From Terriglobia bacterium (GTDB lineage Bacteria > Acidobacteriota > Terriglobia > Versatilivoradales > Versatilivoraceae), in contig OX638355.1 in the NCBI GenBank assembly GCA_951813285.1, forward strand, positions 4,712,437 to 4,776,436: a stretch of DNA of 64,000 bases, in the 5' to 3' direction. The number at the start of each line of letters is the position of its first letter. Position 1 is the first letter of the stretch. The notes beneath the pieces are model-generated. The model searched no databases. It saw nothing but the letters and a program-made list of their open reading frames with translations, and had not been told where the DNA came from. Positions 3,622-52,540 of the stretch are shown here, one piece after another. The translations under genes were made by a program, and so were the position numbers.

Positions 3622-3806
3622 GAGCCTTTTGCAAAATTCGTCGTGCAGCGCTGGGGACGTTGTTGAATTACTGGAAAAACTTCGATCAGCCGTTCCTGAA
3701 TTGCTCTGATTCAATGACGTCTCCTAAGCGCTCTTTAGAGTAATTCCAGTAATTCAACAACGTCCCCTATTCACGTCCCCTACCTGCGGAATTTTGCAAA
3801 AGCCTC
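3622..3806. mobile_element. MITE-like element, family A (inner TIR GGGGACGTTGTTGAATTACTGGAA, outer TIR GAGCCTTTTGCAAAATTC)
   Basis: Perfect inverted termini at 3653-3676 and 3744-3767, plus outer inverted 'gagccttttgcaaaattc'/'ggaattttgcaaaagcctc'. Family recurs five more times in the window. Confidence 0.6.
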
Positions 3807-4125
3807 CCTTGAAAGCAGAATTTCCGGCAAGAGTTTTCAGTGACAGCAATCCCGTGACAGTGCCCCTGCCAAGGTCGCGCTCACAACAACCCGTGTCTCC
3901 CACCAGACGAAGCTGCTCCAGACTAACAAATCCCAACGCACTGTGCGGAGGAACCCGGTTGTAGTGGATCCGCCAGGCCTCAATGCTGTGCCGGGCATCG
4001 GCCAGATTCACAAACCACTGCACGTTCAGGCAGGCATCCCGAAACTTGCCGTTGAAGCTCTCCAACCGTGCATTCTGGATCGGCTTGCCTGGCTGGATGT
4101 AGCGCAACTCCACTCCGGTCCGCCG
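3754..4125 (-). pseudogene. IS3-family transposase (OrfB, DDE integrase core) C-terminal remnant
   Basis: 'SRRTGVELRYIQPGKPIQNARLESFNGKFRDACLNVQWF...ARHSIEAWRIHYNRVPPHSALGF' is the conserved C-terminus of IS3/IS2 OrfB. In-frame stops lie immediately upstream (about 4126-4140), so only about 120 codons remain. Local GC is lower than surrounding genes. Confidence 0.65.
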
Positions 4126-4913
4126 AGACTACAAAGCCTGACCTTATCCAAAACCACTGTGCCGGCGAATGGTGAGGCAAAAGCCCTTGCCAGTTCTTGC
4201 AAGACATCACCATATTCTCACCACATTCGCGGTCATAATCACTCAGAAATCACCTGTGTTGTCTATACTCTGCGCTGTGTCAAAAACAGACAACAGCAGA
4301 AGCAATTGATCACGCACCGTCCGGGTGGTCCACTGTCAGTGGATTGCCATACCCGGAATATTCCTGGTGACGGCAGTGTGAATTCATCGGGAACGTCAAG
4401 AAAAGCTTTTCAGGCCGGATGGCAAATCCGCCATGTTGATCAGCCTGTGAACCATGGCGAACGAGAACCGGACACCCACACGCGCTGCCTGCGCAGGCTG
4501 GACGGCATTCTCTCGAAGACCGCTGCCCTCGCGACGTGTGACTTTGAGGTGCCCGAGTCACAAGAATGATTATCGTAAACAGCTCGTGGCAACTGATTCA
4601 TTGTAGCGTCGGCACTCCCACACAATTCAATCTCTGTGTGGAAGCCCCTGGTCGATTGATTCAGGTGCGCACCGGATACAATATCCCGGGGACACGTCGG
4701 TTCATCTGGACAGGTCGTCGAACAACCATACAAGGACCTTATTGCGAGGACGTGTTTCGTCTGGGTGTCTCTCTGCTGTGGGCACGTGTGGAGGATGGCG
4801 GCGCCCCTGTAGAGATCTGTTTTCGGAGTGGTTTCTGAGCGTCGTTTCGGACTGGAAGCGCGTTCAGGCGGCTTGTTCACGAATCCTCAGAGGCAGCGGC
4901 CGGTTCCCTCTGG

Positions 4914-6404
4914 GTGTTTCGAGGCAGCGGCTCCGAAGGCGCGGTCGAGTCGGTGGTCGTAACCATGCAGGATCTGGCCCCTCAGGAGGAGACGGAACGG
5001 TTGCGCGCTGAATTTCTGAGCCTGGTAAACCACGAGTTGCGAGCCCCGCTGACCTCGATCAAGGGCTCGACCGCGACCGTGCTGGGCGCCGAGCCGGCCC
5101 CGGACACGGCCGAAATGCTGCAGTTTTTCCGAATCATCGACCAGCAAGCAGACCACATGCGAGGTCTGATCAACGACCTGCTCGATGCGGGACGCATTGA
5201 GACAGGGGCGCTTTCGGTCTCGACAGAACCGGTCGAGGTGGCGAGCCTGGTGGAGCAGGCGAGAAACACCTTTCTGAGTGGAGGCGGGCGGCACACCATC
5301 CTGATCGACCTGCCACCTGACTTGCCCAGGGTGCTGGCCGATCAGCGGCGAATCGTCCAGGTTCTCAACAACCTCTTCTCGAACGCGTCGAGGTACTCAC
5401 TCGAGTTGCTTCCGATCCGGGTCGCCGCTGCTCGGGACGACGTGCACGTGTCGATTTCAGTCTCCGACGAAGGCAGGGGGGTACCGCCGGAGCAGCTGCC
5501 GTACCTGTTCCGCAAGCAGACGCGGATGGGCAGCGAGGGGGGGATCCGTGGGAGTGGTTTAGGCCTGGCCATTTGCAAGAGCTTGGTGGAAGCCCACGGG
5601 GGACGGATTCGGGCCGAGAGCTGCGGGGTGGGCGTGGGCATGCAGACCACCTTCACGATACCGGTGGCCGAAGAAGGCGGCGTGGCCGGGAGCCTTCCGA
5701 GCTTGCCTCGGGAAGAGAGGACGGACACGCGTATTCTGGTCGTGGACGACGACCCGAAAACGCTCGGCTACGTTCGGGACGCCCTGGCATCGGAGGGTTA
5801 TGTCCCGTTGGTGACTGGAGACCCTCGCGAGGTGCCCAATCTGATCAGGACGGCGAAACCCCGGTTGGTTCTTCTCGACTCGATGCTGCCGGGAACCGAC
5901 AGAATCGAATTGATGAAACGCCTCCCCGAGATGGCCGGTTTGCCGGTGATCTTCATCTCGGGCTACGGAAGGGATGAGACGATCGCCAGGGCTCTGGATA
6001 CGGGGGCTACCGATTACATTGTCAAGCCCTTCTCGCCGACGGAGCTGGCGGCGAGAGTCCGGGCGGCCCTGCGCAAACAGTACGCCCCCCCCGAACCCTT
6101 CCGGCTAGGGGATCTGTCTATCGACTTCGAGCAACGCCGGGTGATGGTGGCCGGGCAGGCAGTCAAACTTACGCCCACCGAATACGATCTGCTGCGCGTG
6201 CTCTCGGTCAACGCCGGACGGGTCACGACATTCGATTCGTTGTTGCGCCAGGTATGGGGAGACCGTCAACCAGGAAACGTCGTGCTGTTGCGCACCTATG
6301 TGAAGAGGCTCCGTCGCAAGCTCGGCGATGGTGCAGTCAGCCCTGCCTATGTCTTCAACGAGCGCCAAGTCGGCTACCGCATGCCGAGGCCACACGATCT
6401 GTAA
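4914..6404 (+). CDS. N-terminally truncated paralog of the hybrid histidine kinase/OmpR-type response regulator (keeps HisKA-HATPase-REC-wHTH; lacks GAF and most of PAS); possibly a pseudogene
   Basis: GTG-start ORF. Homology to paralogs begins at 'GAVESVVVTMQDLAP' inside the PAS domain. Upstream sequence is IS3 remnant and non-coding low-GC DNA. Confidence 0.6.
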   Translation: MFRGSGSEGAVESVVVTMQDLAPQEETERLRAEFLSLVNHELRAPLTSIKGSTATVLGAEPAPDTAEMLQFFRIIDQQADHMRGLINDLLDAGRIETGALSVSTEPVEVASLVEQARNTFLSGGGRHTILIDLPPDLPRVLADQRRIVQVLNNLFSNASRYSLELLPIRVAAARDDVHVSISVSDEGRGVPPEQLPYLFRKQTRMGSEGGIRGSGLGLAICKSLVEAHGGRIRAESCGVGVGMQTTFTIPVAEEGGVAGSLPSLPREERTDTRILVVDDDPKTLGYVRDALASEGYVPLVTGDPREVPNLIRTAKPRLVLLDSMLPGTDRIELMKRLPEMAGLPVIFISGYGRDETIARALDTGATDYIVKPFSPTELAARVRAALRKQYAPPEPFRLGDLSIDFEQRRVMVAGQAVKLTPTEYDLLRVLSVNAGRVTTFDSLLRQVWGDRQPGNVVLLRTYVKRLRRKLGDGAVSPAYVFNERQVGYRMPRPHDL

Positions 6405-6544
6405 CCCTTGGACTCGCTTTACCTCGTTTCACTAAGCAAAGCCTCTCCACTCTGAAAAGGTTCAGACGGCCTGCGTGCGGTCGGACCTGTTCGAGCGGCA
6501 CCAAGGACGCTCAAGGCGTTCCGCATCGCGAATCGATCTGCACT

Positions 6545-6893
6545 CAGGAATTCGAAGGCGAGGGCAGCGGCCAGAGGGCGACATGGACGGTGCTGCCGCG
6601 CACATGAATGTTGACGTCGCGGTCAACGGGACACATCCAGTGCAGCTCCCGGCGAACGGTATCCGCGATCAAACCCTTGCAGGCTCCGTCGCTGTCGATC
6701 AGGATCTGGATAGCCTCATGCAGCGCCTCGGCCTCATAGCGGTCCCGCTGAGCCGTGTAGGAGTCAGCTTCTGCGTCGTCTGAGGGGAGAAAAAGGCGTC
6801 GACCAGTAGAGCCGCCAGTTCCTGGGGTTTAATCTCCACGGTTACCGAGACCAGCGGCACCACGTCGTGCAACCAAGCTCCGGGCTCCCCCAC
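6545..6893 (-). pseudogene. Small ORF split between two frames (frameshift near a T5/C4 homopolymer at about 6775-6790); function unknown
   Basis: GTG-start frame 'MGEPGAWLHDVVPLVSVTVEIKPQELAALLVDAFF' has high GC3. It continues after a one-base shift as '...DDAEADSYTAQRDRYEAEALHEAIQILIDSDGACKGLIADTVRRELHWMCPVDRDVNIHVRG', also high GC3, with no start codon of its own. Confidence 0.2.
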
Positions 6894-6953
6894 TAACGCT
6901 ACGTCGGCAGCAATGGTGATTGTCTGGATTCAATCACAACTAGCCACTGACCA

Positions 6954-8510: not shown

Positions 8511-8555
8511 CCTTCGCCCCTTCGGTCGCGGCTCGGCCGCGCATCGCTCAAACTG

Positions 8556-9347: not shown

Positions 9348-9596
9348 GGGTCCTCCTTTGTTTTCGGGACTTTGAGGCGGGCTGAGGTGAGGCGGCGCCA
9401 GCCGTGGGCGGTTCAGGGGGCCGCCGGAACGGCGCCTGCCCGGCCGCCCCTTCCGGGAGCCGCACGGATTCCGTAACCGAAGGCGGGCTGAAAAGGCCGT
9501 ATTCTACCCAGTTTGCCCGGGGACATTCCAGTGAAATAGAATGTTTGGAACAGTTGAGAGATCCTGTACACTGAGGACCCGTTCGGGGAGGTAACC

Positions 9597-10379: not shown

Positions 10380-10408
10380 CCGACCTGTCAACCCCCACGG
10401 AAATCCCC

Positions 10409-13005: not shown

Positions 13006-13025
13006 GAGCCTTTTGCAAAAGGCTC
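13006..13025. terminator. Perfect palindrome GAGCCTTTTGCAAAAGGCTC (8-bp stem, TGCA loop) downstream of the minus-strand OCD-family gene
   Basis: Self-complementary 20-mer 74 nt downstream of the OCD-family stop. The same 'gagccttttgcaaaa' half-site is also the outer TIR of MITE family A, so it may be a repeat module rather than a dedicated terminator. Confidence 0.25.
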
Positions 13026-15589: not shown

Positions 15590-15951
15590 CATGGGCTGAC
15601 GCCCACGGCTAAGTACACTGGTTCATAAGTATTGCCACGTATACGTAGCTGCCAAGTCGAGTCTCGCCAGTAAGGTTTCCAGGGTGAACTTTAATAGACC
15701 AGCCAGAATACGTATTAGTACTTATGTGCAGGGGTATTAAGTGCTGGCGAGGCTACGGCGCTCTATAGGGAAGACCTGTAGAAAGCGTTTCGATGGGTAA
15801 CCGACGTCAACCGCGGCTACGCCGCTCTCCCCCAAACCACAACACTGCCGGGGGATAGGATTCTTAAATAATCATCTCCCGGGCGCCAGCCCGGGGTTCG
15901 AGACAAGCCGCGAATGCGGCGCCCGCACTTAGCCGTGGGCGTAAGCCCATG
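15590..15951. repeat. About 360-bp intergenic element bounded by inverted repeats CCATGGGCTGACGCCCACGGCTAAGT / ACTTAGCCGTGGGCGTAAGCCCATGG
   Basis: Terminal inverted repeats at 15590-15616 and 15926-15951. Internal modules (ggctacggcgctctataggga, agccgcgaatgcggcg, agccgcgtaggcggcg) recur at 25190-25340 and 57800-58000. Confidence 0.5.
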
Positions 15952-15995
15952 GAAACGGCGCCCCCACCCCCAAGCCGCGTAGGCGGCGACAGCAA

Positions 15996-21133: not shown

Positions 21134-21249
21134 AGGGGACGTTGTTGAATTACTGGAATAACTTGAAGAAAGCGAGTAGGGAGCGTTTTCAATCAAAAGC
21201 AATTCAGGAACGGCCGATCCAATATATTCCAGTAATTCAACAACGTCCC
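21134..21249. mobile_element. MITE-like element, family A (116-bp form), inserted in an ankyrin-repeat gene
   Basis: Termini GGGGACGTTGTTGAATTACTGGAA ... TTCCAGTAATTCAACAACGTCCCC. The ankyrin reading frame begins immediately at its right end. Confidence 0.6.
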
Positions 21250-21261
21250 CGGCGCAACACT

Positions 21262-21499: not shown

Positions 21500-21961
21500 T
21501 TGACCGATGATTTGGGAGTCACCATGAAACGTGAATCGGCCGGCGCTTACCAGGTCGCCTGGATTTTGGTTGTCGTTATGGGAGGCTGCGAAGCCCTATC
21601 GGCAGGCGGCGTTGAAGCAAACGAGGGCCCGAGCTGCCAAGACTGGAATACGAAGAGATTTTTCGCGTCCGCGTCGCTAGAGAAGGTGACCGCCTGCCTC
21701 GAAGCGGGGGCCGATCCCAACGCACGGGCAAGTTTTTCACGTGAGACGCCCTTGTACCCGGCAAAGAAACGGACCGAACCCAATCCCGAGGTGATTGCCG
21801 CCCTGGAACAGGCCGGAGCGGAATCGCCTTGGATCGAGATCATGTTTTTCAAGTATGTGTCACTGCCAATCGTGACGGCGTTGGCGGTTAGTGCATTCAG
21901 ACGGTGGCGCCGCACAGCCCGTCCAACCCCCTCAGGGCAGGAAACGATCCAGCCCGTCTGA
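21500..21961 (+). CDS. Ankyrin-repeat protein with N-terminal signal peptide and C-terminal TM helix
   Basis: 'SLEKVTACLEAGADPNARASFSRETPLYPA...PEVIAALEQAGAE' are ankyrin-like repeats. N-terminal hydrophobic 'VAWILVVVMGGCEA'. C-terminal 'IEIMFFKYVSLPIVTALAVSAF'. The real start may be the Met at 21524. Confidence 0.6.
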   Translation: MTDDLGVTMKRESAGAYQVAWILVVVMGGCEALSAGGVEANEGPSCQDWNTKRFFASASLEKVTACLEAGADPNARASFSRETPLYPAKKRTEPNPEVIAALEQAGAESPWIEIMFFKYVSLPIVTALAVSAFRRWRRTARPTPSGQETIQPV

Positions 21962-22741
21962 GCAGTGCTTCATGCGTTTGAAGGCCTCGATCATGTCGGT
22001 GATGTCGTGGCCGGGGCAGACCATTCGGAATCCCTGGGCGGCCCGCTCTTCCGCTTCGCTGGGGCTGTTGGTGACGTAGCCCGCGGCCACGCCGGTCTCC
22101 CTGGAAGCTTTCAACACCTCCTGCACCAGCGCCTCGGCCTCCGTCGAGGGCCGGAATTCCCGGGTCGGTTGCTGGCCCAGGGCTTCGGCCCCCACCGCCC
22201 GTTCCAGGTCGTAGGGACCGATCAACACGCAGTCCACGTCGGGCACCGCCATCATCTCCCTCACGTTCCGGACCCCGCTCGGGGTCTCCACCATCACCAC
22301 CGTCAGTATCTGGTCGTTGGCATTCTCGGTGTAGTCGAAATAGCTGTGGCCGGCGTGGTAGGCGGTCCGCAGGCCGGTGGCCGAGCGGTTTCCCCTGGGC
22401 GGGAACTTGGCCGCACGCACAATGCTCTCGCACTGCTCGGCCGTCTCCACCATGGGAATGATGACCCCCAGAGCCCCCAGGTCCAGCACCCTCCCGATCC
22501 AGGCCGGATCGGGTCCCAGCGGCCGCACCAGGGGAACCGTATTCCGATGGACGAAGGGCGCCATGGAGGCGTTGATGCTCGACTCCGACCAGGCCCCGTG
22601 CTGCCAGTCGATCCACACGAAGTCGAATCCGTGCTGGACGGCCTCCTCGGCGATCTCGGGTGACGGGTAGTAGAGAGAAGGACCGGAAATGATCCCGCCC
22701 TCGAGCAGCTTCTTACGAGCCAGATTGACTTTCATCGACAT
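21932..22741 (-). CDS. HpcH/HpaI aldolase family protein (second copy)
   Basis: 'GFDFVWIDWQHGAWS', 'VIIPMVETAEQ' and 'VMVETPSGVRNVREMMAVPDVDCVLIGPYDL' are hallmark HpcH/HpaI segments. Confidence 0.85.
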   Translation of the reverse strand: MSMKVNLARKKLLEGGIISGPSLYYPSPEIAEEAVQHGFDFVWIDWQHGAWSESSINASMAPFVHRNTVPLVRPLGPDPAWIGRVLDLGALGVIIPMVETAEQCESIVRAAKFPPRGNRSATGLRTAYHAGHSYFDYTENANDQILTVVMVETPSGVRNVREMMAVPDVDCVLIGPYDLERAVGAEALGQQPTREFRPSTEAEALVQEVLKASRETGVAAGYVTNSPSEAEERAAQGFRMVCPGHDITDMIEAFKRMKHCSDGLDRFLP

Positions 22742-22755
22742 TACCTTTCCTTGAT

Positions 22756-22903
22756 GAGCCTATTGCAAAAATTCGTCGTGCAGCGCTGGGGACGTTGTTG
22801 AATTACTGGAATAACTGGTAAAGACCGCGTAGGAGACATTATTGAACCAAAGCAATTCGGGAAGGGTTAATCGAAGTGATTCCAGTAATTCAACAACGTC
22901 CCC
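22756..22903. mobile_element. MITE-like element, family A (with left outer TIR GAGCCTATTGCAAAAATTCG)
   Basis: Same termini as 3622..3806. Internal 'caattcgggaagggttaatcgaagtgattcc' is related to the 52468 copy. Confidence 0.6.
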
Positions 22904-22968
22904 TATTCCACGGCGCACTGTCCCTTCGTGGATAACTCCTTTGGTCATTCCGGGATAGCCCAAGTGAG

Positions 22969-23913
22969 TCAGCAACTCACTCCCTTGCCCTCGGAACCGA
23001 ACACGGCCAGACGGTCCTCGTCCCCGGTCTCCCGGCTTTCCGGCGACACGTAGTGATACTGCACGGCCCAGCGCTGCCGGTCGGTGCGGTTGGCGGGAGT
23101 GCCGTGAGGCAGGAGCGCATCGAACACCAGGCAGCCGCCGGCCCTCATGGGAATGGCCACCCGGGGGAGCCTTGCGATCTCGCTGTCGCAGATCTGCCAG
23201 TCACGCCTCATGAAGTGTGCTCGGGCACCTTGTTGATGCCCCCCTTCGATCACCTGCATGCAGCCGTTTTCGGGAGTGGCCCGGTCCAGGGCGATCCAGA
23301 CGCCTACGATTGGAGTGGTCTGTGTGAGGTTGAAGTAGGCGCGGTCCTGGTGCCAGGGCTTCTCCCTTCCGCCGGGAGGCTTGATCAGCGCCATGTCCTG
23401 GTAGAGTCCCGGCTTTCCTCCCAGAATCCGGCCCAGCACCCGCATGAGAGAGGGATCCTCCGCCAGAGCCTTGAGGCCCGGGTTCTCCTCCCGGGTGAAG
23501 CCCATGAACTTGCGGACAAAACGCATCCGGGTTGCCGCCTCGAGCGACGGCAGGCGTTTCCCGGAGTGCCCCAGGGCCAGATCTGCGAATCGCGGGCCCT
23601 TGGGCGCGGCAAAGGGCTTTCCCTGCAGCTCCGGCAACTGCTGCCTGACCGCACCCTCGAAATAGACCGACTCGCAATCCGGCCGCGGGCTGGTGCCCAA
23701 TCGGTAGAGCTCCTGCCTGGCCGCCTCCACGCGGGCCATCGAAAAAGCCTCGTGAACCACCAGGTACCCGCGTTGCCGAAAGAGGGCCAGCTCCTTCTGG
23801 TTGACGGCTTCAAAACCCGTGATTCCCTCCGCCACTGTCTGATACCGGTACAGATCGGGATCGTATGCGGGTATTTCGGGCTCGAAGACCACTCGCAGTT
23901 CAGGTCTGCTCAT
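22969..23913 (-). CDS. Phytanoyl-CoA dioxygenase (PhyH) family Fe(II)/2-oxoglutarate oxygenase
   Basis: 314 aa. 'KPWHQDRAYF' (HxD) and 'GCLVFDALLPHGTPANRTDRQRWAVQYHY' (distal His, Arg) fit the PhyH fold. Confidence 0.85.
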   Translation of the reverse strand: MSRPELRVVFEPEIPAYDPDLYRYQTVAEGITGFEAVNQKELALFRQRGYLVVHEAFSMARVEAARQELYRLGTSPRPDCESVYFEGAVRQQLPELQGKPFAAPKGPRFADLALGHSGKRLPSLEAATRMRFVRKFMGFTREENPGLKALAEDPSLMRVLGRILGGKPGLYQDMALIKPPGGREKPWHQDRAYFNLTQTTPIVGVWIALDRATPENGCMQVIEGGHQQGARAHFMRRDWQICDSEIARLPRVAIPMRAGGCLVFDALLPHGTPANRTDRQRWAVQYHYVSPESRETGDEDRLAVFGSEGKGVSC

Positions 23914-23961
23914 GAAATCATTCCTGCGTTCAACAACGTCCCCCTCGCTCCCAGCGCTCGC

Positions 23962-25068: not shown

Positions 25069-25610
25069 GGTGCTCCTGGTACGTCCCGCCGGGCGGATCA
25101 TACGAGAGGGAAACAACGCATCTTCATGGCCTGTCGGGAACAAGGGCCATGTCGTGCAAAACCGGTTTTCTACTTATCGAACATGGATGCACAGGATAAA
25201 CAGTCGGCTTGTGCTTCACGTGGGCTCACCGGCATTTGCTGCCGCCGCCTACGCGGCTCGACACCCATACACGACGTTTCCCATGGGCTGACGCCCACGG
25301 CTAAGTGCTGCCGCGGCTTCGCCGCTCTCAAGGAAGCCGGCTAAAGCAGCATATTCTCAGGTAAGTCCGGCCCCCGCCCTGTCGTGCGGATCATTCGAGG
25401 GTGAAACAATCAGAAATTGAAAATCCTTTCGCGACCTTGGCATCCCTTCGCGGTTCACCTCAATGCCTTAGTGGCCCTTCGTCGTTCTTCGTGGCCCTTC
25501 GTGGATATCTCTTTTCCTTTTGTCTTTTCTCGTTTGTTTCAAATAAGAAGGCACCGGAACGAGGTCTTGGGCAGGGCCGGAAACCCTCCTGGGGAAAAGG
25601 GGCAAATCCC

Positions 25611-30952: not shown

Positions 30953-31003
30953 GGGTTGGTGGAAAGTGGGGAGTCTGCGTTTCTCTATGTGAGGTCGGTG
31001 TTG

Positions 31004-31237
31004 GCCCCCCTCCTGATCGACTGCGGGCTGCGCCCTTGTCTCTCCGACTCCCCCTCAAGAGGGGAGTGATACTTGAGGCCTGCACCAGGCCTCTTGCCCG
31101 ATTCCTGGGCAGGATGTAAACCATGTTCCCGGTCTACCGCATAGACTCCGTTCCCTCTTCATCACACGGATATCACTCCCCCCTTGAGGGGGAGTCGGAG
31201 AAGCCGAGCCGCAGGCGAAGGCTGATGCGGTGGGGGG
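31004..31237. repeat. Hairpin-TIR repeat, family R copy 1 (TIR TCTCCGACTCCCCCTCAAGGGGGGAGTGATA at both ends, inverted)
   Basis: Left 31040-31070 and right 31172-31202 are reverse complements. Each contains the CTCCCCC-tcaa-GGGGGAG stem-loop. The first about 130 bp match 52233-52365 and 58010-58244 (reverse). Confidence 0.55.
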
Positions 31238-34839: not shown

Positions 34840-37311
34840 CTACACTTCGCCCGGCCTCGCCATACGGTAGCCGACCCGGCGTACGTTAAAGATGTAGGCG
34901 GAATTCTGCGCGTCATCGCCGAGCTTGCGACGGAGCCTCTTCACATAGGTGCGAACCAGGCGAGGATCGCCTTGCTCCCGCTTGCCCCACACTTGGCGCA
35001 GCAACGACTCGAAGGTGACGACCCGTCCCGCATTGACTGAAAGTACTCTGAGCAAATCGAATTCGGTGGCTGTCAACTCCAGCGGATTCCCGGCCACCTT
35101 CACCCGTCGTCCCGCGTAGTCGATCGCGACCTCCCCCAACCTGAAGGGTTCAGGCGGCTCGGCTACTCGGCGCAGGACCGCCTGGACTCTCGCCACCAGC
35201 TCCGTCCGCGAGAAGGGCTTGACGATGTAGTCGGAGGCGCCCTTCTGCAGGGCCTTGGCGACGGTCCCGTCCCTTCCATAACCGGAGATGAAAATGACCG
35301 GCAGACCGGCTATCTCCGGAACTCGCTCCATTAACTCAATGCCATCGGTTCCGGGCAGCATCAGGTCCAGCAGGACCAATTCGGGCTTCTTGGCATTGAT
35401 CAGATGGGGCACCTCCTGAGGGTCGCCCGTCACAAAGGGTATGTAGCCCGCGGCCGTAAGAGAGTCTCGAACGAAACGCAATGTCAGCGGGTCGTCGTCC
35501 ACCACCAGGATGCGTGTTCGCTCCAGTCTTTCCCGAGGCGAACGTGTGGGATTCAGGGCGAAGCCGTTAGTGGCACGGATGGCGGTCTCCTCGGCTATCG
35601 GAATCGTGAACGTGAATCGTGCGCCCAAACCTGTTCCACCGCTTTCCGCCCGGATGCGGCCCCCATGGGCTTCCACCAGTCCCTTGCAGATGGACAGCCC
35701 CAAGCCCGACCCCCTGATCCCGTCTTCGCCGCCTCCGACACGGGCGTACTTGCGGAACAGATTCGGCAACTGATCCGGAGGTATGCCCCGACCTTCATCC
35801 GAGATCGAGACGGCCACGTACAATCCATCCACTACGGCCGAGACCCGGATGGGCGCAGAGTCGGAAGACTGCCTCGACGCATTGGAGAAGAGGTTGTTGA
35901 GAACCTGGACGATGCGACGATGGTCGGCCAGCACCCGGGGCAGGTCTGGCGGCAGGTCGATCAGGAGGGCGTGCCGGCCACCGCCACTCAGAAAGGTATT
36001 CCTGGCTTGCTCCACCAGGTCGGCCACCTCTGCCGGCTCAGGCGTGACCGACAGAGTGCCCGCCTCGATACGCCCGGCATCCAGCAGGTCGCTGATCAGG
36101 CCGCGCATGTGATCGGCCTGTTGTTCGATGATGCGGAAAAACTGAATAATCTCGGCAAGGTCCGGGGCCGGAGAGGCGTCCATCACGGTGGCGGCCGAGC
36201 CCTTGATGGAAGTCAGCGGCGCTCGCAGTTCGTGACTCACCAAGCTCAGAAACTCGGCCCGCGACCGCTCCAGCTCTTCCAGCGGCGCCATGTCCTGAAT
36301 GACAACCACCACCGACTCGACCGCGCCGTCCCCGGAACGGATGGGCGTGGCGTTGACCAACGTGGTGACGCTCCCGCCGCCCGGAACTTCAAACACGGTC
36401 TCACTGGCACGCAGCATCGTACCTCTGCTCAGCACATGCGCCGCCGGATACTCTTCCAATGAGAATTCACTACCGTCGGCGCACCGGCACTTCATGACCT
36501 CCAGCAACTGTTCCGCGGACTGACCTGCGGGGCTCAGATCCTCGACAATTCGCCTCGCCTCCCGATTGATCAACACCGGCTGTCCGGTCCGCGCATTGAA
36601 AACCGCAACGCCTATAGGCGAGGTGTCAACCAGGGCCTCCAGATCGGCCCGGGCCCGATGCTCCTTACGGTAAGTGCGCGCGTTGGCGATCGCCGTGGCC
36701 GCCTGGGCGGCGAACAACACCAGAACATCCTCGTCTTCGCTGGAAAACTCCCGTCCGCCGGCCTTGCCGGCCAGATAGAAGATGCCGACACTCACCCCCC
36801 GATGACACAACGGCGTTCCCAGAACGGTCTTCGGCAGGATCGGGTGCCGGGAAAGACCAAGCGACCGGACGTAGCCATGCATGTCAGTTGATCTCAAGGC
36901 ACCCTCACGGTCCCGGAGGTGTTCGAACAACCGGAGCCCGTCGGCCCATTCCGTCATCTGGTGGCGCTCTTCCTGAGTGAAGCCGGAAAAAACGACCTCC
37001 TCCAACTGTCCCGAGTCCCCGATGGTCGCGATAACACCATAACGGGTGCCGATCAGCGCGCGGGCGCCTTCTACAATCTCGGACAAGACCGTGTCGAACT
37101 CAAGGCTTGCGCTGATGCGCAGGCTGGCCGCGCTTAGCTTGGAGATGCGATCCCGCAGGACCGCGACCTCCTGCATCAGTTCGTCGCGACTCTTCAATTC
37201 CCTTCTCCTTTGGATACCGGAGCCAAACCCGGCTCCTGGCCGCCGCTCCCTGTCTCGAAGCAGACACCGGAGTCGAGGCCCGCCAAGCTCCGCTGGCGCC
37301 AAGACCAGCAT
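34840..37311 (-). CDS. Full-length cytoplasmic hybrid sensor kinase / OmpR-type regulator (coiled-coil-GAF-PAS-HisKA-HATPase-REC-wHTH)
   Basis: 823-aa ORF with no TM segments. All domains readable. The real start may be the internal Met at about 37176 ('MQEVAVLRDRISKL') because the first 45 residues are Arg/Gly-rich. Confidence 0.85.
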   Translation of the reverse strand: MLVLAPAELGGPRLRCLLRDRERRPGAGFGSGIQRRRELKSRDELMQEVAVLRDRISKLSAASLRISASLEFDTVLSEIVEGARALIGTRYGVIATIGDSGQLEEVVFSGFTQEERHQMTEWADGLRLFEHLRDREGALRSTDMHGYVRSLGLSRHPILPKTVLGTPLCHRGVSVGIFYLAGKAGGREFSSEDEDVLVLFAAQAATAIANARTYRKEHRARADLEALVDTSPIGVAVFNARTGQPVLINREARRIVEDLSPAGQSAEQLLEVMKCRCADGSEFSLEEYPAAHVLSRGTMLRASETVFEVPGGGSVTTLVNATPIRSGDGAVESVVVVIQDMAPLEELERSRAEFLSLVSHELRAPLTSIKGSAATVMDASPAPDLAEIIQFFRIIEQQADHMRGLISDLLDAGRIEAGTLSVTPEPAEVADLVEQARNTFLSGGGRHALLIDLPPDLPRVLADHRRIVQVLNNLFSNASRQSSDSAPIRVSAVVDGLYVAVSISDEGRGIPPDQLPNLFRKYARVGGGEDGIRGSGLGLSICKGLVEAHGGRIRAESGGTGLGARFTFTIPIAEETAIRATNGFALNPTRSPRERLERTRILVVDDDPLTLRFVRDSLTAAGYIPFVTGDPQEVPHLINAKKPELVLLDLMLPGTDGIELMERVPEIAGLPVIFISGYGRDGTVAKALQKGASDYIVKPFSRTELVARVQAVLRRVAEPPEPFRLGEVAIDYAGRRVKVAGNPLELTATEFDLLRVLSVNAGRVVTFESLLRQVWGKREQGDPRLVRTYVKRLRRKLGDDAQNSAYIFNVRRVGYRMARPGEV

Positions 37312-37495
37312 CCTGACCCCATGAGTTCATGATAATAACACTAAAATGACTGAATTATTCACACTATTGGCATTCAGTTTTATTGCACAATCAGAAACAA
37401 GGCTGGAAAGGAAGGGTCGCGCTACGTCGATGCCTTGCAGTTACTGGACCGCACGGAAGAAGAGCTGCGGGAAGCCGAGGCCGAGAGAAAAACAG

Positions 37496-37708
37496 GGGAC
37501 GTTGTTGAATAATTGGAAATGCCGGGCGGGGTGATTCTGAAATGCCTTGGATTCGACTGGAAGGGCTCGAAACCTCGTCGTTTGACGGGATGTGCTGAGA
37601 ACCAGGACCGTTCAGCCGGGCCTGACCGAGCACCGGCTGCTCCTTTGCTGCCGGCCAGGGCTCACGCACGGGAAAAAAGTGATTCCCGTAAGCCAACAAC
37701 TTCGCCAT
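37496..37708. mobile_element. MITE-like element, family A long subfamily (about 210 bp); right terminus degenerate
   Basis: Left terminus GGGGACGTTGTTGAATAATTGGAA. The interior is about 75% identical to the 38392..38603 copy. Confidence 0.5.
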
Positions 37709-37736: not shown

Positions 37737-38198
37737 TCACGACGTGAGGATCTTGTAAAGCAGGCCGAACATGGGAATGAACAGCAGGCTGATGAGCGTC
37801 CAGATGATCTTGGTGAGGTTGTTCATCTCCGCTCGGAGAGCGGTGAATTGAGCTTGCAGACCCTTGATCTGAGTTTGCATCTCAGACCGGAGCTCGGTGA
37901 TCTGAGTTTGCACGTCGGACCGGAGCTCGGTGATCTGAGTTTGCACGTCGGACCGGAGCTCGGTGATCTGGGCTCCGATGGCGGTGGTGACGTTCTGGCC
38001 ACTCAAGTGACGTATCTCCTCGATGGCGGGATGGATCAACTTGGGGTCCGCGCCGCTGTCGATCAGGACCCGATGAATTGCGCTGGTTTGAGGTTTTGAC
38101 GAGGTCGGCACTAGCTTTCTCCCTTTCCGGATGGGGTGATTCCGCTCACCCAACCCGTGGAAACGATTCAATGCGAAGAGGGAGAAAGGTGCGGCCAC
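37737..38198 (-). CDS. Small coiled-coil protein with C-terminal TM anchor (DUF1640/XhlA-like architecture) and 3 tandem 11-aa repeats
   Basis: 'QITELRSDVQTQITELRSDVQTQITELRSEMQTQIKGLQAQFTALRAEMNNLTKIIWTLISLLFIPMFGLLYKIL'. A GTG start at 38111 preceded by AGGGAGAAAG is an alternative and would give 124 aa. The DUF1640 assignment is from memory of the family pattern. Confidence 0.5.
   Translation of the reverse strand: MAAPFSLFALNRFHGLGERNHPIRKGRKLVPTSSKPQTSAIHRVLIDSGADPKLIHPAIEEIRHLSGQNVTTAIGAQITELRSDVQTQITELRSDVQTQITELRSEMQTQIKGLQAQFTALRAEMNNLTKIIWTLISLLFIPMFGLLYKILTS
37869..37967. repeat. 33-bp direct tandem repeat x3 inside the coiled-coil gene (copies 2 and 3 identical)
   Basis: ctgagtttgca(c/t)(g/c)tc(g/a)gaccggagctcggtgat repeated at 37869, 37902 and 37935. 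Confidence 0.85.
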
Positions 38199-38391: not shown

Positions 38392-38603
38392 GGGGACGTT
38401 GTTTTATTACTGGAAAAATCGGGTGGAGCGACTCTGAAATGCTTTGGAAATGGACGGGAAGGGTCGACACCGGGTAGTGTGACAGGGCGTGCTGGGAAGC
38501 AGGTTCGTTCAGCCGAGTTCGACGAAGCGTCGGCTGGTCGTTATCCGCCGGCCAAGGCGTAGATGTCGGAATAGAGTTATTCCAGTAATTCAACTACATC
38601 CCC
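38392..38603. mobile_element. MITE-like element, family A long subfamily (212 bp), both termini intact
   Basis: GGGGACGTTGTTTTATTACTGGAA ... TTCCAGTAATTCAACTACATCCCC. Confidence 0.6.
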
Positions 38604-39336: not shown

Positions 39337-39342
39337 GATTTC

Positions 39343-46016: not shown

Positions 46017-46089
46017 GGTGTCCTCTCCCGCAGCCTTTGTTCAGGCCCCGGTGGCGGCGGTTGCGCCTCCAAGGGCGGCTCGCCCATCC

Positions 46090-47163: not shown

Positions 47164-47182
47164 TGGACTCCTATTAGATCCT

Positions 47183-48172
47183 TCACTCCTCCAAGGCCAC
47201 CGGGGCGCCCTGTCTCCAGGACTGAATAATGGCCTCGACAATACGCATGGACTGAATAGCCTCGCGGGCCGGGCTTTCGGGTGGACGGCGACCGTCCACC
47301 GCATCCAGGAAAGCCTGGTGCTCGTCGGCCATCAAGGGGTCCCGCTCCAGGTCGAAGGTGCGGACGGTTTCCGACTCGGTATCGCGATTGCCCAGTCGCA
47401 GCGAATTGGAGCGCATGTCGAAAAGAGCCCAGCCCCGGTCCCCGATCACTTCGCAGGCGCCGCGGTCGGGATGCTGCACGTAGTTCATGTGAATGGTGGC
47501 GATCAGCGGTTCCTGGTACTCCAGGGTGACGGCCATCAGATTGGGATTGGACTGCAGCGGCAGTTCTCCGCCCCGGCAGCCGGCGGCATAGACCCTGACC
47601 GGCATCTTCCCCAACCACCAGTAATAGAGGTCGGGCTGGTGGGCGTAGTCCATGGCGATGGCCCCCTCCACCTCGGCCTGGTGCCGAGAGATGGAGTTCA
47701 TCAGGGTGAGATAGGTCCCCACGTGGAAGTGCAGCGAGAGGATGCGCCCGAAGGCTCCTTCCCGGATGAGCTCCTTCAGGTGCTGCATCACCGGATGGAA
47801 GTGGTAGGTGAACCCCACGCTGAAGACCCGGCGACCGGCCTCGGCCGCCTCGAGCATTCGCTTGGCTTGAGCCAGGCTGTCGCTCATGGGCTTTTCGCAA
47901 AGCACGTGGCACCCGACCTGGAGCGACCGAATCGCCATTTCGGCATGCAATCGGTGGGGTGTGGCGATCACCACCATTTCCGGGCGAGTGGCCAGCAGGC
48001 TCTCGAAGGACGTATGGGTCGGAACCTCGCCCACTTCCCGCAAGGCCCGCTGCAGGTGGTCGGGATGGGATTCGCACAGCTCCACCGCGAGCTCCGGCCG
48101 GGCCGACAACACGCGGGCGTGCCGGCGTCCGATGGATCCGCAGCCGACCACTGCAATGCGCCTCTGGGCCAT
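47183..48172 (-). CDS. Gfo/Idh/MocA-family NAD(P)-dependent oxidoreductase
   Basis: 'RIAVVGCGSIGRRHA','VLCEKPM'. Confidence 0.85.
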   Translation of the reverse strand: MAQRRIAVVGCGSIGRRHARVLSARPELAVELCESHPDHLQRALREVGEVPTHTSFESLLATRPEMVVIATPHRLHAEMAIRSLQVGCHVLCEKPMSDSLAQAKRMLEAAEAGRRVFSVGFTYHFHPVMQHLKELIREGAFGRILSLHFHVGTYLTLMNSISRHQAEVEGAIAMDYAHQPDLYYWWLGKMPVRVYAAGCRGGELPLQSNPNLMAVTLEYQEPLIATIHMNYVQHPDRGACEVIGDRGWALFDMRSNSLRLGNRDTESETVRTFDLERDPLMADEHQAFLDAVDGRRPPESPAREAIQSMRIVEAIIQSWRQGAPVALEE

Positions 48173-48191
48173 TCTCCGTCTGCCTTTCAGA

Positions 48192-49253
48192 TCAGATCTC
48201 GTCGACGTTGATGAGAGGCATGGAGGCGCCCTCCAGCATGGCGTCGATGGATTCCAGGTGCTTGAACCCGCCCCCGGTGACCAGGCACACGACCCTCTCG
48301 TCCGCCTTCACCAGCCCCTGGCCCACCGCCAGTTCCAGGCCGGCCAGCGCTGTGGCCCCGGCAGGCTCGGTATAGATGCCTTCCTCCCGGATGAGGCGGC
48401 GCTGCCAGGAGTAGACGGCCTCATCGGACATCATCTGGCCCGACCCCTGGCTGGCCAGCACCGCGTCCAGGGCCACCTGGGCGTCCAGCACGGCGGCCAC
48501 CTGCAACCCGGAAATCTCACTGGTGCAGGTGACCGCCTGGGCGCGAGTCTCGTTCCTGCTCAGCGGCCCCACCACCGTGGCGCATCCCTGCGGCTGGGAG
48601 GCGTGCATCCTTGGAACCCGGTCGATGCGCCCCTCCTGGAACCACTCCCGATACCCCTGATAACACTGGTAGAACAGGCCGCCCCCTCCGATGGGCCCGA
48701 AGACGTGATCGGGGGCGCCGCCGAGCTGCTCGCAGATTTCAAAGGAGATGGTCTTCACCCCGGCCATCTGCCGCGGGCTGATGCAGGTGGCCGAGATCAG
48801 CAACACGGCCTCGCTGGTCCGGGCTCGGGCCTTGAGCCGTTCCACCACCGAGTTGGTCCCGGCCTCGGTGACCCCGAACTTCCGGACCCGGATCACCCGG
48901 GCGCCGTAGGCCTCGGCCTGCACCAGCTTCGCGCGCGAGGCCGTCTCCAGCACATACAGGTCCAGCTCAAAGCCGAAGCGGGCCGCGTAGGCCGCCAGGG
49001 CCGAGCCGGTATTGCCGGAGGAGGTGGCCAGCATCCGGTCGCGGTCCTCCTCGATCATCAATGAGGCGGCCATGCTGGCGAAACGGTCCTTGTAGGATCC
49101 CGAGGGGTTCTGGAACTCCAGCTTGAAGTAGAGGTGGTCCAACCCCAGGGATGGGCCGATCTGGCGGCTGCGAACCAGGGCGGTGTCGCCCTCTCCCAGG
49201 GAAGAGATGTTGCTTCTGTCCTTCAGGGGCAGGTTGTCGAAATATTTCCACAT
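48192..49253 (-). CDS. PLP-dependent enzyme of the tryptophan-synthase-beta fold (threonine synthase-like)
   Basis: 'FQNPSGSYKDRFA' with PLP-lysine, 'SSGNTGSALAAYAA', 'VTGGG'. Confidence 0.8.
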   Translation of the reverse strand: MWKYFDNLPLKDRSNISSLGEGDTALVRSRQIGPSLGLDHLYFKLEFQNPSGSYKDRFASMAASLMIEEDRDRMLATSSGNTGSALAAYAARFGFELDLYVLETASRAKLVQAEAYGARVIRVRKFGVTEAGTNSVVERLKARARTSEAVLLISATCISPRQMAGVKTISFEICEQLGGAPDHVFGPIGGGGLFYQCYQGYREWFQEGRIDRVPRMHASQPQGCATVVGPLSRNETRAQAVTCTSEISGLQVAAVLDAQVALDAVLASQGSGQMMSDEAVYSWQRRLIREEGIYTEPAGATALAGLELAVGQGLVKADERVVCLVTGGGFKHLESIDAMLEGASMPLINVDEI

Positions 49254-49419
49254 GTGAGTTGACTTGGCAGGCCGGCGGCGCCGGTCCCGGAGTCCCCGCC
49301 ATCATAGAAGCGAGACCTGCCGCCATCAACTAAAAAAGATTGGGGAGGGTAGGACCACGGGCCCTCCTTGCTCCCCCAAAGCCTTTGGCATACTATTTCC
49401 GCAGGCGTCGGGAGAACTC

Positions 49420-50235
49420 ATGAACGAGGACGGCTCCACATCGGGCCGGGTTGAAGTCAACGGCGTCCGACTGGCCTATAGCCTGTGCGGCCAGGGAGCC
49501 GGTGTCGTCTTGCTGCACGGCTGGATGTGCAACCGGTCCTTCTGGCAACGCCAGTGCCGGGAGTTGGCGGGCCGGAACTTCCGCTGTCTGGCTGTCGACT
49601 TCCGGGGGCACGGCGACTCGGAAGCGCCTGCCCGAGGCTATTCCATTGGGCAACTGGCCGCCGACGTGAGCGCCATGATGGCGGCCCTGGAGTTCGGGCC
49701 GGCCGTCATCGTGGGCCATTCCATGGGCGGCATGGTGGCCCAGCACTTCTGCCTGGAACGGCCGGAGCAGACCGCCGCGATGGTGCTGGTGGCGACCATC
49801 GCCTCCGATGTAGAAGACCGGCTGATCTCGAAGAGAATCGCCTCCGATGCCACCCGGATGGGCTTCCAACGTGCTTTCGACCGCCATTTCGACGCCTGGT
49901 TTGCTCCCGGCGCCCCGGAGTCGGTTCGCGGCTGGGTCAAGCGGCAGATGCGGTCCACCTCCGACGAGCTGGGCCTGCAACTGGTCGGCGACTACAGCCG
50001 CTTCGACCTGACCGGCCGGTTGGGAGAGATTCGGCATCCCACCCTGGTGATCGGCACCCGAGCGGACGACTCGGCCCCTCCCGCACAGAGCCTCCGCCTG
50101 GCCGAACTGATCCCCGGTGCCCGACTGGCCCTGATCGAAGACTGCGGACACTTCCCCATGCTGGAGAAACCGGAACTGCTGAGCCGGGCGCTGCTGCCCT
50201 TCCTCGAGGCGCAGGCCGGCGTCGGAGAGGATTGA
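49420..50235 (+). CDS. Alpha/beta-hydrolase fold protein
   Basis: From 'MNEDGST' (GGGAG Shine-Dalgarno). 'VVLLHGW','GHSMGG' nucleophile elbow, C-terminal 'DCGHFP'. Confidence 0.85.
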   Translation: MNEDGSTSGRVEVNGVRLAYSLCGQGAGVVLLHGWMCNRSFWQRQCRELAGRNFRCLAVDFRGHGDSEAPARGYSIGQLAADVSAMMAALEFGPAVIVGHSMGGMVAQHFCLERPEQTAAMVLVATIASDVEDRLISKRIASDATRMGFQRAFDRHFDAWFAPGAPESVRGWVKRQMRSTSDELGLQLVGDYSRFDLTGRLGEIRHPTLVIGTRADDSAPPAQSLRLAELIPGARLALIEDCGHFPMLEKPELLSRALLPFLEAQAGVGED

Positions 50236-50237
50236 CC

Positions 50238-51590
50238 ATGTCGAGCGGCCCCTGGCGTGAGGAGCACGACTTCCTGGGCCCGGTCCAGGTCCCGCGGGAA
50301 GCCCTTTATGGAGCCCAGACCCAACGCGCCCTGCACAACTTTCCACTGTCGGGGGAGCGCTCCATCGGCGACTATCCGACCCTGGTGGAGGCGCTGCTGC
50401 GCATCAAGTGGGCGGCTGCCGAGGCCAATCGGACGGCCGGGTTCCTGGACGCCGAGGTCGCCGCGGCCATCGTTCGAGCGGTTCGGGAACTGATCGACGA
50501 AGGGGCCTGTCGCCATTTCCCCATCCATCGCTTCCACGGAGGAGGAGGCACTTCGGCCAACATGAACGCCAACGAAGTGCTGGCCAACCGGGCCGAAGAG
50601 CTCCTGGGAGGGGGCCGGGGGCAATACCATCTGGTCCATCCCAACGATCACGTCAACCTCCACCAGTCCACCAACGACGTCTACCCCACCGCCTGCCGCA
50701 TGGCCGTGATCGCTTCCCGGCCCCCGCTGGCCGATGCCCTTGAAGGACTGAGGCAGGTCTTGCGAACCCAGGCCTCCCGATTCCAGGACGAGCCCCGGGT
50801 GGCCAGGACCTGCCTTCAGGATGCGGTGGCCGTCACTTTCGGGGACCTGTTCGGAGGCTATGAAGCCACCCTTGCCCGAGCCGCCGGCCGGATCGCCCGC
50901 GACGTGGACGAGCTGCACGTCATTAACCTCGGCGGCACCATCGTGGGGCGCTCGCAGGATGCTCCCGAGGTTTATCGGGATCGGATCCTTCCCAGCCTTC
51001 GGGAAATCAGCGGCGACCCGGCCTACCGCTTGGCGCCCGACCTCTTCGACGCCGCCCAGAACCCGGACGGGATGGTGGCAGTCTCCACCGCCCTGGAGAT
51101 GCTGGCCCGGACCCTCATCAAGATCGCCAAGGACCTGCGGCTGCTCAGTTCAGGCCCCGAGGCGGGCCTGGGAGAGATCCGGCTCCCTGCCGTTCAGCCC
51201 GGCTCCTCCATCATGCCCGGCAAGGTAAATCCGGTGATTCCGGAGTTCGTCGTTCAGTGCTGCTTTCAGGTCATCGGAAACCATGCGGCTTGCGCCGGCG
51301 TCCTGGACCACGGCGAACTGGACCTGAACATCTGGGAGAGCCTCCTGCTCTTCAATGTGCTGGATTCGATGGGCTTGCTGGCAAACGCCGCCCAAACCCT
51401 GGCCGAGCGCTGCCTGGCGGGAATGACGGTGGCGCCGGAACGCAACCGGTCCAACGCCGACTCCATCATCCCCCGATTGACCGAGCTGGTGAAGAAACGA
51501 GGCTACTCGGCGGTCAGCCGCGTGTGCCGGGAGGCCGGGGGGGACCCGCGGAAAATCCGAGATTTGTTGAAGAAAGAAGGCTGGAACTAG
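50238..51590 (+). CDS. Aspartate ammonia-lyase / class II fumarase family (lyase_1) protein
   Basis: From 'MSSGPWREEHDFLGPVQVP'. 'TSANMNANEV','GSSIMPGKVNP' signature. Confidence 0.85.
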   Translation: MSSGPWREEHDFLGPVQVPREALYGAQTQRALHNFPLSGERSIGDYPTLVEALLRIKWAAAEANRTAGFLDAEVAAAIVRAVRELIDEGACRHFPIHRFHGGGGTSANMNANEVLANRAEELLGGGRGQYHLVHPNDHVNLHQSTNDVYPTACRMAVIASRPPLADALEGLRQVLRTQASRFQDEPRVARTCLQDAVAVTFGDLFGGYEATLARAAGRIARDVDELHVINLGGTIVGRSQDAPEVYRDRILPSLREISGDPAYRLAPDLFDAAQNPDGMVAVSTALEMLARTLIKIAKDLRLLSSGPEAGLGEIRLPAVQPGSSIMPGKVNPVIPEFVVQCCFQVIGNHAACAGVLDHGELDLNIWESLLLFNVLDSMGLLANAAQTLAERCLAGMTVAPERNRSNADSIIPRLTELVKKRGYSAVSRVCREAGGDPRKIRDLLKKEGWN

Positions 51591-51663
51591 CCCGGAGGGC
51601 CGCCGGACGAGATAGGCGGACCTCCCCTCTTGCCGCCTGGCGGCTCAATCAGGAGAAAGTCCT

Positions 51664-52122
51664 ATGAAATTCCAAGACCCATCCCCCACCGAAGCCACCC
51701 GAGCGCCGCGGGAAGAAACAAGCCCAACGGAAATTGTGACCGTGCGTCCCAGCCGGGAGGTGATGTCCAAGCAGCGTCTTCCCTATTTCTTTGGAGTCTC
51801 GGAGGAAACTTCCGGAGCACGGGGAATTTCCATGAGCCTGGTGGTCATCCCCCCCGGCGGTGCGGCCGAACCCCACTACCATCGAGGCTTCGAAACCGCC
51901 ATCTACATGCTGGAAGGAAGTGTCGAGACCCGTTACGGCAAGGGGCTGCGCCGCAAGGTCACCCACCGCCCGGGAGATTTTCTCTTCATTCCGCCCGGCG
52001 TGCCTCACCAACCGGTCAACCTCAGCGACCGGGAGCCGGCCAGGGCCATCGTGGCCCGCAATCACCCCAGCACCAACGAAGAGGTGGTCTTCTACGATCC
52101 GGGGGCGGAGGATGTGGGCTGA
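51664..52122 (+). CDS. Cupin-domain protein
   Basis: 'PHYHRGFETAIYMLEGS...GDFLFIPPGVPH' two-motif cupin signature. Confidence 0.7.
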   Translation: MKFQDPSPTEATRAPREETSPTEIVTVRPSREVMSKQRLPYFFGVSEETSGARGISMSLVVIPPGGAAEPHYHRGFETAIYMLEGSVETRYGKGLRRKVTHRPGDFLFIPPGVPHQPVNLSDREPARAIVARNHPSTNEEVVFYDPGAEDVG

Positions 52123-52232
52123 GGCGTCAGCGCCCTCGTACTCTTCCGTAAAGGTGCATCACGAGACCCGCCCGAAGCCCTTGTACGACGCCGCCAACAG
52201 GCCGCTGATATTCCGCACGGGACGCCGCGTTT

Positions 52233-52465
52233 GCCCCCCTCCGGATCGACTGCGGGCGGAGCCCTTGTCTCTCCGACTCCCCCTCAAGGGGGGAGTGATT
52301 CTTGAGGCTTGCAAAGGGCCTATTGCCCCATTCCTGGGCACGATGTAAACCATGTTCCCGGTTTAATGTGTGGACCATGCCCACCCGGGAGCGCGGGCGT
52401 CCCGCCCGCTTCCTTATTCCTGCAATCAGCCTGCGGTCCACGCCACTCTCTTGCAAGGAGGGCAC
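52233..52465. repeat. Hairpin-TIR repeat, family R copy 2 (about 230 bp)
   Basis: About 90% identical to the reverse complement of 58010..58244. Abuts MITE family A copy at 52468. Confidence 0.55.
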
Positions 52466-52467
52466 CG

Positions 52468-52540
52468 CTGGGGACGTTATTGAACAAGAGCAATTCGGAA
52501 GCGGTCGATCAAAGTTATTCCAGTAATTCAACAACGTCCC
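52468..52540. mobile_element. MITE-like element, family A short form (73 bp; termini intact, interior deleted)
   Basis: GGGGACGTTATTGAACAAG ... TTCCAGTAATTCAACAACGTCCCC. Confidence 0.5.

Follow-up and report, generated by a model that had tools for sequence, protein, structure and literature searches.

The 64-kb stretch of Terriglobia bacterium contig OX638355.1 analyzed here (its whole length is referred to as the window) harbored a family of real, mobile, and non-autonomous repeats bounded by inverted termini related to the 24-mer GGGGACGTTGTTGAATTACTGGAA. The window contained a total of six paired elements (115/116, 212, and 72 bp) plus one solo end, most copies being intergenic:

3653-3767, 115 bp: copy 1 (core), perfect 24-nt inverted termini, inside an outer shell at 3622-3806
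21135-21250, 116 bp: copy 2, perfect termini, fold z -9.6
22788-22903, 116 bp: copy 3, perfect termini, in the spacer between PhyH and HpcH genes
23929-23943, minus strand: solo terminus remnant TTCAACAACGTCCCC, 15 nt exact and 19/24 overall
37495-37706, 212 bp: copy 4, decayed termini with 2 and 5 mismatches
38392-38603, 212 bp: copy 5, termini with 2 and 2 mismatches
52470-52541, 72 bp: copy 6, one canonical terminus, the left end being a diverged inverted terminus (GGGGACGTTATTGAAC...)

An earlier note on this DNA had described a family with inverted termini, made up of six copies and a solo terminus, and both claims were borne out: the 24-mer displayed 10 matches (up to 3 mismatches) in the window compared to 0 in 100 dinucleotide-preserving shuffles, its pairing recurred in other genomes (see below), and a profile search by nhmmer with a model from 35 copies added no further members in the window. 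The coordinates given there were accurate to within 0-2 nt, save for copy 1 and, on its left side, copy 3, both of which had been drawn so as to include an outer arm (see below). The size classes were likewise correct and recurred in other genomes, but the shortest form had been taken for an internal deletion and was not a simple one: the 72-bp form was equal to the first 72 bp of the 116-bp form. The three 115/116-bp copies of the window had interiors 65-78% identical, and all six of their ends were perfect. With lengths of 72-212 bp, the copies were too short to encode a transposase, in agreement with the non-autonomous nature already assigned to them. The solo end was located in the 48 bp that separate the PhyH gene from the MR_MLE gene, and the spacer holding copy 6 was crowded with other repeats. 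A separate family of ~250-bp repeats (84-92% identical, with the palindrome CTCCCCCTCAAGGGGGGAG) was present at 31000-31237, 52218-52471, and 58004-58258; one of these repeats directly adjoined copy 6, and such a repeat together with a 72-bp element was tandemly duplicated in L080 (one of the stretches fetched from other genomes; see below).

The earlier note had advised that the termini, a full-length element sharing them, and target-site duplications be looked for across genomes. An exact 21-mer of the terminus was used as the survey key, the resulting count being a lower bound, and the DNA stretches fetched by exact terminus match were designated with L-numbers (L028, L084, etc.). The 21-mer was found at at least 96 loci in 14 species-level assemblies, a set separate from the window's own genome. 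Among the matches listed, 13 of the 14 assemblies were labelled as Acidobacteriota, under the labels Candidatus Versatilivorator (Acidobacteriota, class Terriglobia), Versatilivoraceae, "Terriglobia", "Vicinamibacterales", "Acidobacteria bacterium", and one Aminicenantes; the 14th was a bin labelled Silicimonas, represented by a single 857-bp contig end. The window shared 88-93% nucleotide identity in synteny with the Candidatus Versatilivorator assemblies. Plus- and minus-strand ends were paired at recurrent distances among the loci listed: 72 bp (n=9), 116 bp (n=33), 169 bp (n=7), 211-214 bp (n=9), 256-260 bp (n=5), and a few at 1.0-1.36 kb. At one locus (L011 4284-4350), a 20-bp terminus/flank junction GCAACAACGTCCCCAGCGCT formed three tandem repeats next to an element, perhaps a sign that this end had slipped or had been processed repeatedly.

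The same termini bracketed a 1341-1355-bp gene-bearing unit in related Acidobacteriota genomes, which was the full-length element to be looked for; full-length units were located at the following positions:

L028, 2724-4078: full-length unit
L061, 5688-7031: full-length unit
L081, 4834-6174: full-length unit
L007 from 7280, running into L005 to 620: full-length unit

Each unit contained one 321-aa open reading frame (ORF), the stop codon of which abutted the right terminus, and 24-31-nt inverted termini surrounded the gene in the four full-length copies. The termini of full-length units and their clear derivatives further had an outer extension of ~11-12 nt with lower conservation: GGGnAAAAATA 5' of GGGGACG, and TATTGACTCCCC 3' of CGTCCCC. 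No Y1 gene was found in the window, in keeping with the earlier statement that the partner transposase was absent from it, and the protein tests were run on the partner from related genomes. The 321-aa protein was characterized by (i) a Pfam Y1_Tnp match of 30.3 bits (cut-off 23), with REP_Tyr_transpos as its top NCBIfam match, under the model cut-off; (ii) the residues N59-H60-A61-H62, F98-Q99, and Y119-I120-H121-L122-N123, invariant in 25 homologues and covering the motifs NHAH and YIHLNP; and (iii) a C-terminal region (residues 255-314) that was covered by weak matches of HTH_23 (19.9 bits) and Bac_DnaA_C (18.8 bits), both sub-cut-off, and was helical in the AlphaFold model with a predicted local distance difference test score (pLDDT) of 75-87, several homologues having precomputed PF08299 or PF13384. 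The Y1 structures in the PDB were reached by neither single-protein nor profile sequence searches, and a fold search was therefore needed: the AlphaFold model (mean pLDDT 78.7) best matched 4ER8 (TM 0.73 on target, probability 1.00), which is E. coli TnpA-REP with a bound REP hairpin, and the next fold matches were the IS608, ISDra2, and IS200 TnpA. The partner was most likely a Y1/HUH tyrosine transposase of the TIRYT type (TnpA-Y1 subclass 2.1).

The box GGGGACGTT(G/C)(T/C)T was present upstream of the start codon in all five homologues fetched (57-65% identity), some of which carried the names Thermodesulfobacteriota or NC10 in their sources; in three cases measured, GGGGACGTT began 57-103 nt 5' of the start codon, and an inverted copy overlapped or immediately followed the stop codon in four of the five. 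Even distant homologues thus keep the terminal box together with the protein. Within a single genome, three full-length units of OZ240232.1 were 95-98% identical in unrelated flanks, and derivatives of 1037, 878, and 530 bp from the same genome, together with one of 1114 bp from another genome, aligned to the full-length unit as internal deletions. Shorter forms displayed partial retention: the 257-260-bp forms kept both subterminal regions of the full-length unit, the 434-bp form kept its ends plus the C-terminal coding part, and the last ~50 nt of the unit were kept by the 157-, 171-, 257-, and 293-bp forms and marginally by the 169-bp form. A by-eye reading in which every short class kept these last ~50 nt was rejected by a similarity test against shuffles.

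The search for target-site duplications proposed in the earlier note was negative: none of ≥3 bp was found at the ends of 82 elements (0/82) at any offset of 0-15, and a 2-bp TA match at the ends was present in only 12/82. This bore directly on the view that the copies are classical DDE-type miniatures, whose 24-nt termini would be bound by an IS3-type or DDE_Tnp_1 enzyme and moved by cut-and-paste. The terminal-inverted-repeat architecture of the copies speaks for that view, and so does the setting of copy 1, which was located in insertion-sequence debris with an rve_3 remnant (IS3-type integrase core; 3931-4110, minus strand; E 5.9e-24 in Pfam) alongside. The adjacency of an IS3 remnant, as previously reported, was thus real, but the remnant lay outside the element and its shell and had no terminus in common with them; it was rejected as the partner. 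Moreover, among the 96 loci fetched, the GGGGACGTTGTT termini bracketed the Y1 gene or its truncated remains at ~12 places and never a DDE gene.

A DDE-type element was present in the window as a second, distinct layer. The sequence GAGCCTTTTGCAAAATTC, found on both sides of copy 1 and on one side of copy 3, was the terminus (18 bp) of a different insertion sequence, so that the second outer inverted repeat of the earlier note did exist around copy 1 and beside copy 3 but belonged to another element:

3622-3806, 185 bp: DDE-type miniature shell around copy 1, with arms at 3622-3639 and 3789-3806 and a 4-bp duplication CCTT at 3618-3621 and 3807-3810
22756-22787, plus strand: DDE-type element arm flanking copy 3 (GAGCCTATTGCAAAAATTCGTCGTGCAGCGCT)
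L076, 4022-5508, 1487 bp: full DDE insertion sequence with a 391-aa transposase (DDE_Tnp_1 plus DUF772) and target duplication CAAC

Given the CCTT-flanked shell, copy 1 was a Y1-type core that rode within a DDE-type miniature element as its cargo. Eight of 14 outer-repeat pairs had 4-5-bp target duplications, and five of these eight (copy 1 plus four other composites) enclosed a Y1-type core; movement as DDE-miniature cargo speaks for the cut-and-paste view, but the ends of the DDE insertion sequence differed from the 24-nt termini. Taken with the lack of duplications at the termini themselves, this makes a DDE origin of the cores already disfavoured, and we consider it very unlikely. The window contained no homologue of this DDE transposase; a cargo-free miniature DDE copy of 309 bp was located at 54812-55120, and the family was also represented at 13006-13025.

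The evidence for movement came from comparison of loci. CBDAOQ01 carried at least seven cores that differed by 0-3 nt in unrelated flanks. At 49354-49359 the window had an empty site, whereas the insert of L096 at this place was made up of nested repeats, measured 1.16 kb, and contained a 116-bp copy. The genes on either side of copy 3, both on the minus strand, were HpcH (21932-22741) and PhyH (22969-23913), and the copy was missing from the corresponding spacer of a close relative (L098), in which the PhyH gene was 98% identical and a different repeat was present. The L098 spacer was filled by CCCTTCGTGG-rich repeats; short repeats of this kind were found in several spacers (window 22925-22945 and 25470-25510, L098 553-840, and L096 700-960). 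By contrast, the region of copies 4 and 5 was syntenic in four related assemblies (L084, L025, L056, and L062) with family termini in each, and the termini of these two copies were decayed, so they were probably older; being old-looking and syntenic, they indicate that not every copy was recent. The earlier suggestion of recent or current mobilization therefore holds for part of the family only, namely, for near-identical copies in unrelated flanks and for sites that differ in presence or absence.

These comparisons also addressed the possibility that the copies are host-maintained REP-like palindromes, now immobile and kept as terminators, mRNA stabilizers, or protein-binding sites. Several features would suit such a role: most copies were intergenic, their hairpins were strong, their termini were perfect despite 22-35% interior divergence, and copies 4 and 5 lay in regions syntenic with the four assemblies. 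Against it, the copies occurred in both orientations and in unrelated contexts, copy 3 was missing beside the 98%-identical gene of the relative, and copy 2 adjoined a truncated gene. The latter was an ankyrin-repeat ORF, of which an 80-aa C-terminal fragment starting at 21245 was left; the N-terminal half was absent on the other side of copy 2, so the gene earlier described as interrupted was truncated at the copy without its counterpart across it. Rfam gave nothing at gathering thresholds for the copies, and permissive settings yielded either nothing or only generic long-hairpin microRNA models that scored far under the threshold. The presence at many loci, the unrelated flanks, and the differences among relatives agreed with the earlier preference for mobile elements over conserved regulatory sites. 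We regard the host-palindrome view as unlikely, and it concerns current function only, being compatible with a transposon origin.

Copies 4 and 5 raised a further possibility, that the termini are recombination sites bounding gene cassettes in an integron-like arrangement. The two copies bracketed a small repeat-containing ORF (37737-38198, minus strand; 153 aa), and L084 385-3901 matched three overlapping stretches of this ORF plus several 212-bp elements, which suggests that a unit of element and ORF was tandemly amplified in L084. Homologous recombination between repeats explains this amplification, no integrase gene was seen near copies 4 and 5 in the ORFs examined, and most copies of the family flanked no cassette. 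The termini did not appear to fit the attC consensus (GTTRRRY). An attC reading of the copy 4-ORF-copy 5 arrangement was rejected on this poor fit and on the lack of an integrase gene nearby among the ORFs examined, and cassette boundaries are scarcely credible as a general account of the family. The ORF itself contained 33-bp (11-aa) tandem repeats at 37865-37970 and had weak coiled-coil-type Pfam matches only.

The 116-bp cores were further compared with their surroundings. They had conserved non-symmetric flanks, GTGCAGCGCT on one side and TAYTC on the other, the long versions of which (GTGCAGCGCT; TAYTC...) were inner parts of the DDE shell. Relative to these flanks, the cores among the loci listed were found in both orientations, 20 one way and 12 the opposite; in the window, the core of copy 3 was inverted with respect to that of copy 1, as judged against the flanks common to both. 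Orientation mostly followed subfamily, an argument for a small number of flank bases being moved together with the core. Copy 1 and L013 6002 were the two closest relatives (91% identical) and yet had opposite core orientation; flipping therefore happened more than once, possibly by template switching at the hairpin or by excision and reinsertion at the same joint. An invertible promoter switch was rejected as the main account of core orientation because the latter mostly tracked subfamily; moreover, the ORFs examined next to the copies included no recombinase, and the arms are only ~66 bp apart, seemingly too little for known invertases.

Taken together, the copies in the window are probably non-autonomous miniature elements of a TIRtron family, the Y1/HUH (TIRYT) partner of which would be encoded elsewhere in the genome. 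Five points weigh against this assignment. First, the interiors of the 116- and 72-bp forms matched the full-length unit no better than shuffled sequence, only the ~30-nt terminus being common, and the same was true for the interiors of the 85-bp class and the window's 212-bp copies; the window copies are thus not simple deletion products of the gene-bearing unit, to which they relate as REPINs do to RAYT-flanking repeats. Second, a lone terminus had no significant hairpin (z -1.1), unlike known Y1 substrates, and TIRYT proteins are not known to have been studied biochemically. Third, the pattern of flanks and orientation described above is not predicted by a simple model. Fourth, selection by an exact 21-mer inflates the apparent conservation of the termini, so that the identity among fetched loci (98-99.5% in termini versus 88% in interiors) was raised by the search method itself; the window copies were unselected by this survey. 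Fifth, the window contained no Y1 gene, and because of this we infer from relatives that a Y1 gene co-occurs with the copies in the window's genome.

The TIRtron assignment can be laid out as a mechanism. A TIRtron unit would consist of ~30-nt inverted termini (GGGGACGTTGTTGAATTACTGGAATAAC) around a Y1/HUH gene with a C-terminal helix-turn-helix tail, and the enzyme, supplied in trans by a presumably intact Y1 gene elsewhere in the window's genome, would recognize GGGGACGTT-type termini. A short copy in single-stranded form could pair its ends into a perfect stem: whole 115/116-bp copies were predicted to form a perfect 24-26-bp stem with energies between -30 and -33 kcal/mol and z scores from -8.1 to -9.6, copy 1 folding at -30.4 kcal/mol (z -8.1). 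The HUH/Tyr site would presumably nick at the foot of this stem, after which the element may travel in single-stranded form and enter its new site with no target-site duplication, in the manner of IS200/IS605 and REP/RAYT systems. As a second layer, some copies, including copy 1, are moved as cargo inside a DDE-type miniature element. The termini held in common with the Y1 unit, the absence of target-site duplications, and the capacity to form hairpins lead us to infer that the family works like REPIN/RAYT or an IS200-type single-strand system. A broader proposal, which we put forward tentatively and hold to be slightly less than an even chance, is that subclass-2.1 Y1 (TIRYT) proteins, so far regarded as low-copy and not insertion sequence-like, would here form an active autonomous insertion-sequence family with long inverted termini (the GGGGACGTT box) and a helix-turn-helix tail, the miniature derivatives of which hitch-hike in DDE-type miniatures, core flipping being a by-product of hairpin processing.

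Other repeats and paralogues were also present in the window. The Rfam sRNA Acido-Lenti-1 had two matches above the gathering score, at 25281-25326 (plus strand) and 57890-57935 (minus strand), both inside repeated intergenic sequence, and a third copy of the core of this repeat was located at 15916-15955; in this DNA, the motif may belong to a dispersed repeat and not represent a single-copy sRNA gene. Three paralogous regions, at 32-1900, 4914-6404, and 34840-37311 (minus strand), shared 71-79% DNA identity, and the one tested with Pfam (34840-37311) encoded a hybrid two-component protein with GAF, HisKA, HATPase, receiver, and Trans_reg_C domains. Segments at 3449-3544 and 6521-6616, downstream of paralogous regions, were also conserved.

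The comparison with known systems was applied to TIRtrons, REPIN-RAYT systems, IS200/IS605 elements, and DDE-type miniatures. TIRtrons are Y1 genes (TIRYT) bracketed by GGGG-starting inverted repeats that may also be scattered over the genome (Di Nocera et al. 2013, PMC3733652), and the TIRYT proteins were equated with TnpA-Y1 subclass 2.1 by Quentin et al. 2018 (PMC6006769); for this subclass, the second largest Y1 protein group, a mean copy number of 1.9, an identity of 49%, and no insertion-sequence features were reported (PMC6006769). An Acidobacteria-specific TIRYT group was previously noted (PMC3733652, PMC6006769). The family shared with TIRtrons (i) a ~320-aa Y1/HUH protein with Y[IV]HLNP and FQ, the C-terminal helix-turn-helix tail of TIRYT having a putative counterpart here (matches below cut-off); (ii) the gene located inside GGGG-starting inverted repeats; and (iii) the dispersal of these repeats as singles, pairs, and clusters, which in the genomes surveyed extended beyond the gene-bearing units. 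It differed in that the octamer GGGGACGT matched GGGGWSAS at 6/8 positions (the right-end outer box GGGGAGTC at 7/8) and that the HuH motif had Ala as its middle residue. Compared to subclass 2.1 as described, the unit was insertion sequence-like, with at least three copies 95-98% identical in one genome plus deletion derivatives.

No report demonstrating the mobility of TIRYT/TIRtrons was found in the literature. Of added interest here are the conserved GGGGACGTT box, the nesting in DDE-type miniatures, and the fact that a subclass-2.1 element behaves like an insertion sequence. The family offers a natural study case, with multicopy full units, a deletion ladder, abundant miniatures without target-site duplications, and a motif that travels with the protein, and it makes possible experiments on which strand is cut, at which position, and what the putative helix-turn-helix tail binds. 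It also explains a dense class of intergenic repeats in these Acidobacteriota metagenome-assembled genomes, which probably fragments assemblies and truncates genes.

The three other systems matched the family in part. DDE-type bacterial miniatures (e.g., Correia elements) resemble it in length (70-260 bp), terminal inverted repeats, mainly intergenic location, and the existence of several size classes, but the copies here had neither target-site duplications nor, among the longer units examined, a DDE parent, the DDE type being represented only by the outer shell around copy 1. REPIN-RAYT systems (Bertels and Rainey 2011; PMC3116915, PMC5581495) likewise contain non-coding doublets with inverted conserved ends, a less conserved spacer, and long hairpins, lack target-site duplications, leave singlet remnants, and have a Y1 partner gene flanked by the same repeats; in contrast to them, the ends here were not self-palindromic and had no GTAG tag, and the transposase unit was multicopy and insertion sequence-like, whereas the RAYT gene is single-copy and vertically inherited. 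IS200/IS605 elements likewise have a Y1/HUH catalytic fold, produce no target-site duplication, and give rise to short forms from a longer unit, but they have no terminal inverted repeats, a different subterminal hairpin at each end, a TnpA of ~150 aa with Y---Q, and often tnpB, while the family here had long inverted termini, a Y---NP motif, a putative helix-turn-helix tail, and no tnpB. The family thus fits the TIRtron class, and it is set apart from REPIN/RAYT and IS200/IS605 by its non-palindromic termini, multicopy unit, and long inverted ends.

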